IMG/VR virus record: IMGVR_UViG_3300031603_000001
Location: 1 to 64,000 of that record
From: a virus
Direction: 5' to 3' (one strand)
DNA length: 64,000 nucleotides
The notes beneath the pieces are model-generated. The model did no database searches, had not been told where the DNA came from, and worked only from the letters and a program-made list of their open reading frames with translations. The position numbers were made by a program, and so were the translations under genes. Shown piece after piece: positions 30,601 through 35,659 of the stretch (positions within the stretch are counted from its first letter, which is position 1; each line of letters begins with the position of its first letter).

Positions 30601-33600
30601 GAAACTCACTACTGCTGTAGGGTACGGACAACTACAGACTACAGCGGCAGCTATAGAACTAGAGTTTGAAACACTAGCTAATACCCTAGGGAACGACGCC
30701 CCTCCAGAACTACTACGTGCCATGGAAGAGATGACAGCTGATAAAGAAGCTGGTAACCTCAACCTTCCAAAACTATTTGCTAAGATGAATGCAATCAAGA
30801 GTAGAGTAGGCCATACCTCTGTAATAACAATGATTGACTACCTACCAGAAGGTTTCGCGTACACAGAAGAGTCCGGTTCTATTATACAGGATCAACTTCT
30901 TCCTTATTTTGCCAGTTATGCCAAAGAATCCAAACACACCACGTATTTTAACACTAAGTATACTGCAGCCCAAATAGGAACAGATGAAGGCATGGCCAAG
31001 TTCCTCAGTAAACTCAAGTTTCACAAAGGTATACAATACGAAATAAACAAGAAGCTATCTGATAAGACCTTAGCTATATCCCAACCTGTAGCTGGTAAAT
31101 TCTCCCTTGAACTGATGGGAATGCACGGGGCGTTTGACGAAGCACAGCGCTTTGTAGAAAACTCAGGCACACCCCCTCCATCCGCTGTATTAGCAGGCGA
31201 AGCATTAGTCACATCCGACACCTCAGGACTAGGGTCGCTATATGCATTCGGCCCGGAGTACGATCACCAAGTACCGGGGTTCCCCTCTAAAATCACTATC
31301 GATACAAACACAGGCGAGATATCAATCGGGCTACACCACGTAGAGCTAGACAGCCTTGGAGGTAAAACCCAAACAGATGGAAAAGTAACAAAGCAGAGTA
31401 ACACAGGACTATCTGGACGGGTAATGGGGACACTAGGAAACCCCAAGTACACTAGAGGATATACACTGGATCCTTTTGTAGGAGCAGCGCAGGGTGGTAA
31501 ATATGGTGGAAGTAGAAATGAAACGGCAGCAGCCTTACTTAAACAAGTAGACCGTATCAGTACCAAATGGGTAATGTACGATAACCTGAGTATAGTAGAG
31601 CAAGAGCGGCGAGCAAATAAGATATGGACTGACCTTCTTGGCGATAAGGCTGCGGACATAGACTTCAGCCACACAACAATTACTACTCCTAACGGCGATC
31701 GTCCTATACTTGTGACAATACTTCCTGACCGTGCAGAGATGGCAGTTAAGCAAAACTACAAACTAGGAAAGCTCGAAGAGATACTACGCAGAGAAGGCCT
31801 GACCTACGACTACGTACAGAGAAGATTCAAAGAGAACATCGATCGTCTAAAACTAAGTGACCCAGGCGGACGATGGACTGCAGCTATTACTCAGCTGAAC
31901 CAATCACTAGAGCGTGATATTAACACCAGCAAAGCAGGTTCTACTGAGTATGCTAACCTGGTACGAGTCCAGGCTAACATAGGAAATCCAAACGAAGCCG
32001 CTCCATTAGATCTAGTCAGCTTAGTGCATGGCATGGGTAAGAGCGCTCAGCATTGGGGATTACGAGCACTCGGTACAAGGTCAACTAGTAGTAGTGTGGC
32101 AGATTTCTGGATCAAGTTCAGTAGAGCAGAGACTCTTTCTGGATTTCCTAATATCACACCAAGACTGCTTGGTACAACTGCAAACATATTATTACAATCA
32201 TTCGACTTAGCTACTCGCACCAAAAAAGGCGGAGCAGGTCCAGCAGATTTCAACGTCATGGCGGGCTTCCTGTCAGGGCAAGCAGGTGTAAACCATGTTA
32301 ACATGTGGAATGAAAACGCTATTGGCGATACCCTCTTAGATACACAATTACTCAACGAATTCTACCTGAATAAGCGTGGAGTAATACCGGATACACTGGA
32401 CATAAAAGGGCTACCTAATCCTAAGAAGATAGGAATTACCTCAGCATCCGTACTAGACGTCACCGAGGAACTTGAGATCCTAGGCAGCCTACAAAAACAT
32501 GTAGACTTCGACGATCCTAATTTCCACAGCATGGGCCGTAATGAACGTTCACATTACCTACAAGGAAAGTTTGGAAAGAAGCCATCTGACGATTTCTTAC
32601 ACAACTTACAACTCGCTAAAGACCAACGAGAAACTGTATGGTACGCTGACCGGGAATGGTTACATAGAGCTAAGCTTTTAAAACCAAGAGGACCTGGTGG
32701 TAATCGATTCATACGTTATGATGCCCCCACACTTACTCAGCTATCTAAAGGCTTCGATATACATGGTGGCGGAAGTTGGCAGACACAGATAGCGCGGGCA
32801 TTAGATTCTAATGGTGCTGACTCAATTAAAGCAGTAGGATACAACGGCAAGACTGTTATACTAGACAGTCTAAAGAAACGACTGATTGATGCTAAACTTA
32901 TTGACGGAAATGGTAGACTACAGTTTGAATTTGATGTTAAGGATTTATTAGAGTCACAGATTGAGAAATTAGGCAGTAATACCGGTGGCGATGCCGCTAA
33001 GCACAAAGAACTTCTACAAGCTCTGCTGCGTCAAGTAGATGAAGCTTCTGTAACCAAAGACCATTTTGTACTTCCTAGCATAGGAGGCGTACAAGCTCCT
33101 TACGCTTCAGGAGATCGTGTACTATTCTCAGGATTAATGAAAGACACTCAGGGCACACTGCAGGCTTTCGGCAAGCTTGATAGCATGCGTATTGATTTAA
33201 CAATGGACACCGCTACCTCCAAATACCGTAAGTACCGAAAAGGAAAAGGCGGAATACACGAAGCTGCTATTATAGACATGGGAATAGATTCGGTAGTAGC
33301 TGATATTAAACGTAACGCTATGGAAGTCTCCGGTAGAGTTATGAATACCTGGACCAAGATAGGTACGGCGGGGTTCCAGCAAGCTAACTTCAGAGCAGCA
33401 GCTGGTACCACGACAATGGCATGGGGCAAGCTCCAAAATTCAATGACACTTGTACCGGCTCTTGAACAAGTGTACTCCAAGATAGGTACTTCTGATTTCG
33501 TTAACACATCCTACGCACTTCCCGACTTCTTGAACGTATCAGACAAGTCCCCCTTCAAACTAGACACCTGGTTAAGTAACCTCAGCAAGGGTAACAAAGT

Positions 33601-35659: not shown

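Follow-up and report, generated by a model that had tools for sequence, protein, structure and literature searches.

The IMG/VR virus record IMGVR_UViG_3300031603_000001, which is 197,958 bp long and rated complete by CheckV, carries a myovirus structural module in its first 64 kb, the stretch of 64,000 nucleotides analyzed here and referred to as the window. Within it lies g2 (P0001), a giant open reading frame (ORF) at positions 27653-35659 of the plus strand, which occupies the tape-measure slot and encodes 2668 amino acids (aa) in one open frame without a single cysteine. Around aa 2100 the encoded protein contains a D-x-D-G-D loop resembling that of the beta-prime subunit of bacterial RNA polymerase. 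The loop and its arginine partner upstream are conserved throughout a family of very distant relatives, and the protein may represent a highly diverged polymerase delivered with the virion.

Conserved elements of the g2 family

The family was gathered by an exhaustive phmmer search with aa 1470-2668 of g2, which retrieved seven large relatives and one fragment. Scans of IMG/VR and JGI metagenomes added one further member and otherwise duplicates, and word-index searches with the core profile found nothing new. The final alignment holds nine sequences, eight of them distinct and full-length, which span 2612-2793 aa and fall into three clades with 17%-30% identity between clades. Invariant columns number 79 out of 2668; they are clustered and mostly charged.

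The candidate double-psi beta-barrel A (DPBB-A; 33626-33964, plus strand) consists of the successive elements KGFG(I/L)N(E/Q)S.I...A...L, WL.G, NR.P (R2049), YV.PDEL (P2067), hhhD (D2090), and [GA]D[QF]D[GR]D (D2100, D2102, and D2104). The elements pointed out in the initial annotation were all located in the one 2668-aa frame: GDQDGD at aa 2099-2104 (33947-33964), RSP at aa 2049-2051 (33797-33805) with R2049 lying 51 aa upstream of the motif, NSAVYV at aa 2084-2089, RDLVL at aa 1992-1996, and a lysine segment at aa 1223-1247, the nucleotide ends of which are 31319-31393 instead of 31322-31395. The segment GESPISYQSAVDLL occupies aa 2004-2017. Sequence alignment revealed that G2000, G2002, R2049, P2067, D2090, D2100, D2102, and D2104 are invariant in the eight distinct members. 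The constancy of DxDGD among homologues had been set beforehand as one of two points on which a polymerase assignment might fail, next to the absence of a predicted DPBB around aa 1950-2110, and the three aspartates turned out to be invariant. The same holds for R2049, proposed as the counterpart of R425 of beta-prime, and for the proposed lysines K1238 and K1247.

Five members have [GA]DQDGD as the motif sequence; ADFDGD is found in P0007, of which L009 contains a near-identical copy, and in P0008, the two being distinct members; the remaining one has ADFDRD. Gly stands at motif position 4 in seven of the eight. Two positions ahead of the first Asp, where the NADFDGD of beta-prime has Asn, the family is variable. 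The ORFs of this genome contain four D.DGD-type sites, and a single D.DGD is thus not beyond chance; it is the conservation of the g2 motif, unlike its mere presence, that is beyond chance. Independently, SDFDGD occurs at aa ~88-95 of a 470-aa ORF (6969-8381) just upstream of the major head protein gene. This ORF has no family match, and its length would not accommodate a two-barrel polymerase; the occurrence is therefore probably fortuitous.

Downstream of the motif by 128-145 aa is a YLTQK..G.IG..K block (34334-34387, plus strand) with Q2231 and G2239 invariant. It is followed by a helical domain at aa 2255-2449 (34415-34999, plus strand) with invariant I2329 and K2331. This domain is the sole part that could be modelled confidently, with a predicted local distance difference test score (pLDDT) of 65-92, and no clear structural relative of it was found.

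Far upstream, the beta-like lysine segment together with the next conserved block (31319-31522, plus strand) forms, judging from sequence, a candidate second barrel, DPBB-B. Residues K1238, K1247, G1281, K1283, G1285, R1288, E1290, Q1298, and R1301 are invariant in the family. A QDE-1-like DPBB-B located 280-420 aa upstream of the motif was also considered as the catalytic barrel, but the placement was discarded in view of the poor conservation of that stretch. Still further upstream (29378-30214, plus strand), motifs of the DEDDh exonuclease type are recognizable at the motif level, namely D576-x-E578, D704, and H849-x4-D854, all of which are invariant. For this region there is no Pfam match, the best PDB profile E-value is 0.16, and hhalign comparison against DnaQ and RNase T gave P values of 0.16-0.26.

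Three further conserved elements complete the picture. The N-terminal 40 aa (27653-27772, plus strand) are highly conserved, comprising a hydrophobic segment at aa 11-33 and the invariant residues K4, K6, D10, S14, P20, G24, and K27. An invariant block at aa 935-973 (30455-30571, plus strand; A936, E947, P951, G953, L955, N957, R960, K962, Q964, N972, and P973) is a candidate nucleic-acid-binding element. In the C-terminal module (35270-35656, plus strand), which is common to the proteins P0010-P0014, FDPNT.S, GE.YDIPS, and KNR come after a hydrophobic segment. The proteins that share this module of ~120 aa include one of 5280 aa, and it may serve to dock proteins in the tail lumen.

Cysteine is absent from all eight family members, against ~17 expected per protein from the genome background of 0.63%. 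The gp145 and gp146 proteins of Bacillus phage 0305phi8-36 likewise have none. The lack of cysteine in the g2 family fits proteins that move unfolded through the tail and the cell envelope.

Genome setting of g2

The structural module of the window includes the genes for the major head protein (8471-9814), the tail sheath (12869-15610), and a baseplate wedge protein of the Baseplate_J type (44996-46138). Between the small genes that follow the tube gene and the baseplate genes lie three consecutive giant reading frames, the ends of which overlap, suggesting translational coupling. On one side of g2 lie tail chaperone-like genes, and on the other a giant of the lysin/hub type.

The upstream giant g1 (20203-27663, plus strand) encodes 2486 aa, and its 3' end overlaps the start of g2 by 11 nucleotides. 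It carries an intein (Pfam Intein_splicing) at aa ~1472-1790, directly ahead of a PD-(D/E)XK/Cas4-like nuclease match at aa 1844-1976. Inteins are also present in the g1 genes of relatives, one of which has two inteins and a LAGLIDADG domain. The conservation of g1 is far above that of g2, with 406 invariant columns. Downstream, a 57-aa ORF (35656-35829, plus strand) overlaps both the g2 stop codon (ATGA) and the start of g3a, and an ORF of 55-66 aa is found at its place in every related locus. The third giant is represented by g3a (1105 aa) and g3b (1365 aa), which lie at 35822-43247 on the plus strand and show lysin-like PHROG matches. In most relatives it is a single gene of 2417-2446 aa; it is split here and in the P0003 contig. 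The gene order from the first giant, often with inteins, through g2, the 55-66 aa ORF, and the third giant to the Baseplate_J gene is kept in all related loci.

The nearest terminases are those of Moorella phage MTATph1, Bacillus phage 0305phi8-36, and related jumbo myoviruses. In 0305phi8-36, the corresponding slot is occupied by gp145 (1930 aa), gp146 (2537 aa), and the lysin/hub protein gp147. Mass spectrometry identified gp145 and gp146 as virion proteins, and the long tail led to the assignment of gp146 as the tape measure (PMC2147016). In both phages, three giants in a row separate the chaperonins from the gpV/gpJ-like genes, with g2 in the slot of gp146 and of similar length, and g3a/g3b as the positional equivalent of gp147. 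Unlike g2, gp146 possesses neither DxDGD nor the DEDDh motifs, and no similarity to g2 is detectable in gp145 or gp146. We infer the presence of g2 in the virion from its position, its zero cysteines, and the positional equivalents gp145 and gp146 proven by mass spectrometry.

The genome encodes a family A DNA polymerase, a clamp loader, and a ribonucleotide reductase of its own. A search for a phage-specific promoter word turned up tRNA-like repeats and coding tandem repeats, and nothing else. Words of tRNA and tRNA-like type dominate the intergenic regions of a minus-strand block at 100-172 kb of the genome, outside the window. Coding tandem repeats of 117 bp lie at both record ends (window 76-430; genome 197867-197958). 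The 5'-open ORF 2-1768, which has a tail-fibre-like PHROG match, thus continues from the end of the record, and the record is circularly permuted.

Comparison with RNA polymerases

We compared g2 by hhalign with profiles of beta-prime and beta, built from 79 and 68 proteobacterial loci, respectively. Against beta-prime, the top local match falls on the catalytic strand-loop, where SAVYVDRVAMKFMRGDQDGDLAAL is aligned over 24 columns (P = 0.039, not significant). The flanks are in the same register, with hhhD-x9-D in g2 corresponding to IQLH-x9-D460 in E. coli beta-prime. The flanks were also scored in an anchored extension test that left out the motif itself and covers 13 residues only; column shuffling attained the observed value 2 times in 500 and 3 times in 300. 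Downstream of the motif, the best local match ends on the bridge helix of beta-prime, with YLTQK facing GYLTRRL, and is hence collinear with beta-prime; its score was also reached by 6-8 of 200 shuffles and by the reversed profile, and it is not significant. In the lysine region, GxK...K...SRNE is collinear with GDK...GNK...PSRMN of beta region H at the noise level (P = 0.29). A match by eye of GGSRNE to PSRMN/GGQRFGEME of beta was dropped, as hhalign against beta gave no support for it. Beyond the bacterial enzyme, comparison with the N-terminal 1540 residues of gp96 of Thermus phage P23-45 placed NRSP...DQDGD on FRNP...DFDGD over 56 columns (P = 0.13, not significant).

Pfam and PHROGs, queried with the whole of g2, all family members, and the exonuclease region, gave nothing relevant. 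Searches of the PDB by sequence and with profiles of the whole family, DPBB-A, and the lysine region yielded spurious matches only (SNAP-25 helices and Rpo4). There was no match by tblastn in the INPHARED phages and PLSDB plasmids, and no usable match in the ESM Atlas. The families PF00940, PF00623, PF00562, and PF05183 have no match in the 198-kb genome, and the motif region is without a paralogue there. No other gene for an RNA polymerase was detected in the genome, which leaves g2 as the sole candidate should the phage have a polymerase of its own.

Structure prediction was performed in two AlphaFold2 runs, each on an 8-sequence alignment. The model of aa 1470-2668 has a mean pLDDT of 45.9, and that of aa 1960-2460 has a mean of 53.3, with values of 25-62 over aa 1960-2147. 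Around the motif itself both models stay below 50. In these low-confidence models the secondary structure around the motif is mostly helical, with helices on both sides. The helix directly before the motif agrees with the DPBB pattern.

Proposed function and alternatives

To our knowledge, virion-delivered two-barrel RNA polymerases have been documented experimentally in few phage groups, namely phiKZ/AR9-type phages, crAss-like phages with gp66, and P23-45 with gp96. The gp96 protein is a two-barrel RNA polymerase fused to the tape measure, with activity and structure established by experiment (PMC10770324). Like gp96, g2 encodes a giant in the tape-measure position with DxDGD preceded by N-R-x-P (R-N-P in gp96), and its proposed role is likewise to transcribe the entering DNA. 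The two differ in that gp96 belongs to a siphovirus, has an N-terminal polymerase (DFDGD at aa 779-783 of 5002), and lacks exonuclease motifs, whereas g2 belongs to a myovirus and has its motif at aa 2100 of 2668 with DEDDh-like motifs upstream. The 2180-aa virion protein gp66 of phage phi14:2 was recognizable only by its Asp motif before its structure was solved (bioRxiv 10.1101/2020.03.07.982082). The conserved blocks that follow the g2 motif at a distance of ~130-240 aa correspond in position to the bridge helix and trigger loop of gp66; in gp66, however, the barrels are joined by a ~140-aa connector, the motif is DFDID, and the protein is packaged in the head of a podovirus. With bacterial beta-prime and beta, the g2 family shares ADFDGD in some of its members, the identical hhh[HD]-x9-D spacing, and NR.P upstream; YLTQK resembles GYLTRRL, and GxK...K the beta lysine pair, neither to a significant degree. 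Unlike the bacterial enzyme, g2 has no Pfam match, and its putative barrels would be ~860 aa apart on one chain.

Taken together, we favour, at roughly even chances, the reading that g2 encodes a virion giant in the tape-measure slot with a very diverged two-barrel polymerase centre, most likely an RNA polymerase for early transcription. Its conserved charged clusters would form an enzyme centre with a beta-prime-type NRxP...DxDGD loop at the core, which makes a two-barrel RNA polymerase the most likely function. In this model, a long-tailed jumbo myovirus would produce the protein from its tape-measure slot; the conserved end modules would probably dock it in the tail, and at infection it would be expelled through the tail. 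The catalytic centre would be assembled from distant conserved segments, with the magnesium-binding NRxP...DxDGD loop at aa ~1990-2110 as its core and the invariant basic residues at aa 1238-1301 supplying the second half of the site. The putative enzyme would thus be a very diverged single-chain two-barrel nucleotidyl transferase, which as a DNA-dependent RNA polymerase might start early transcription on the entering genome. The initial annotation had likewise postulated a diverged single-chain virion RNA polymerase. The virion part of that proposal gains support from the gene position, the synteny with gp145-gp147, and the lack of cysteine; the barrel fold, its presence twice on one chain, the polymerase activity, and the template are what we infer from the motifs.

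Several observations temper the polymerase reading. No significant match to an RNA polymerase was obtained by Pfam, PHROGs, phmmer and hmmsearch against the PDB, or hhalign; the resemblance at the sequence level is collinear and falls on the expected elements, but its statistical support is weak. There is also some circularity in it, since it was the motif itself that directed attention to this part of the protein. Neither AlphaFold2 model has a clear relative by Foldseek or VIA-align, and the lack of predicted strands elsewhere around the motif is at odds with a DPBB, although in models of such low confidence this does not amount to a negative verdict on the fold. Finally, gp146 occupies the same slot without DxDGD or similarity to g2, so that a slot protein need not be an enzyme.

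The strongest alternative, which we regard as unlikely, though to be taken seriously, is that g2 might be a tape-measure or ejection protein without polymerase activity, in which the acidic loop binds a metal for structure or for other chemistry, such as that of a nuclease, a phosphodiesterase, or a Toprim-like hydrolase acting together with the DEDDh-like domain. Acidic DxD loops are found in many metal enzymes, neither fold nor profile supports a barrel, the models place helices on both sides of the motif, nuclease-type motifs occur in both g1 and g2, and the loop motif is missing from the 0305phi8-36 protein in this slot. However, the loop reads D-x-D-G-D followed by a hydrophobic residue, unlike the calcium pattern DxDxDG; some members carry ADFDGD with flanks and spacing like those of beta-prime, and the upstream NRxP arginine is invariant. 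A Toprim domain in particular needs a strand immediately ahead of DxD, together with an EG motif further upstream, neither of which is seen in g2.

A quite improbable alternative retains the two-barrel polymerase and makes it something other than a transcriptase, that is, a proofreading DNA polymerase, a primase-like enzyme, or an RNA-dependent or template-independent nucleotidyl transferase, in each case with a DEDDh exonuclease. The invariant DEDDh motifs on the same chain point in this direction, the pairing of exonuclease and polymerase being typical of DNA polymerases, and so does the variable residue two before the first Asp. A two-barrel DNA polymerase does exist in PolD (PMC10770324). 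Nevertheless, the genome already has its family A DNA polymerase, clamp loader, and ribonucleotide reductase, and the characterized two-barrel enzymes of virions are all RNA polymerases. It is very improbable that the motif arose by chance in a tape measure with a structural role only, as the four D.DGD in the genome's ORFs and the ruler-like tight length of the family might suggest, for the three Asp and the Arg 51 aa upstream are invariant at 17%-30% identity and the invariant residues are clustered and mostly charged.

Returning to the polymerase reading, its fullest form is one that we advance tentatively and hold to be somewhat doubtful as a whole: g2 may represent a family, not described before, of giants that lack cysteine and reside in the tail lumen of long-tailed jumbo myoviruses. 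These would combine, on one chain from the tape-measure slot, a 3'-5' exonuclease with a two-barrel polymerase of fused beta/beta-prime-like type, the barrels lying ~860 residues apart, and would be injected via the contractile tail to transcribe, and perhaps to edit or proofread, on the entering genome.

The separate polymerase gene of the 0305phi8-36 lineage, orf99, is of the YonO/RNA-dependent RNA polymerase type (PMC2147016). If g2 indeed encodes a polymerase, tape-measure-linked delivery of a transcription enzyme would also occur in contractile-tailed jumbo phages. It would add a pairing of polymerase and exonuclease unknown in the two-barrel superfamily, and the evolutionary history of that superfamily would have a very remote sequence to accommodate. 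A total lack of cysteine in proteins of 2,600-2,800 residues, a lack also seen in the proteomics-proven gp145 and gp146, provides a simple marker for tail-translocated proteins.
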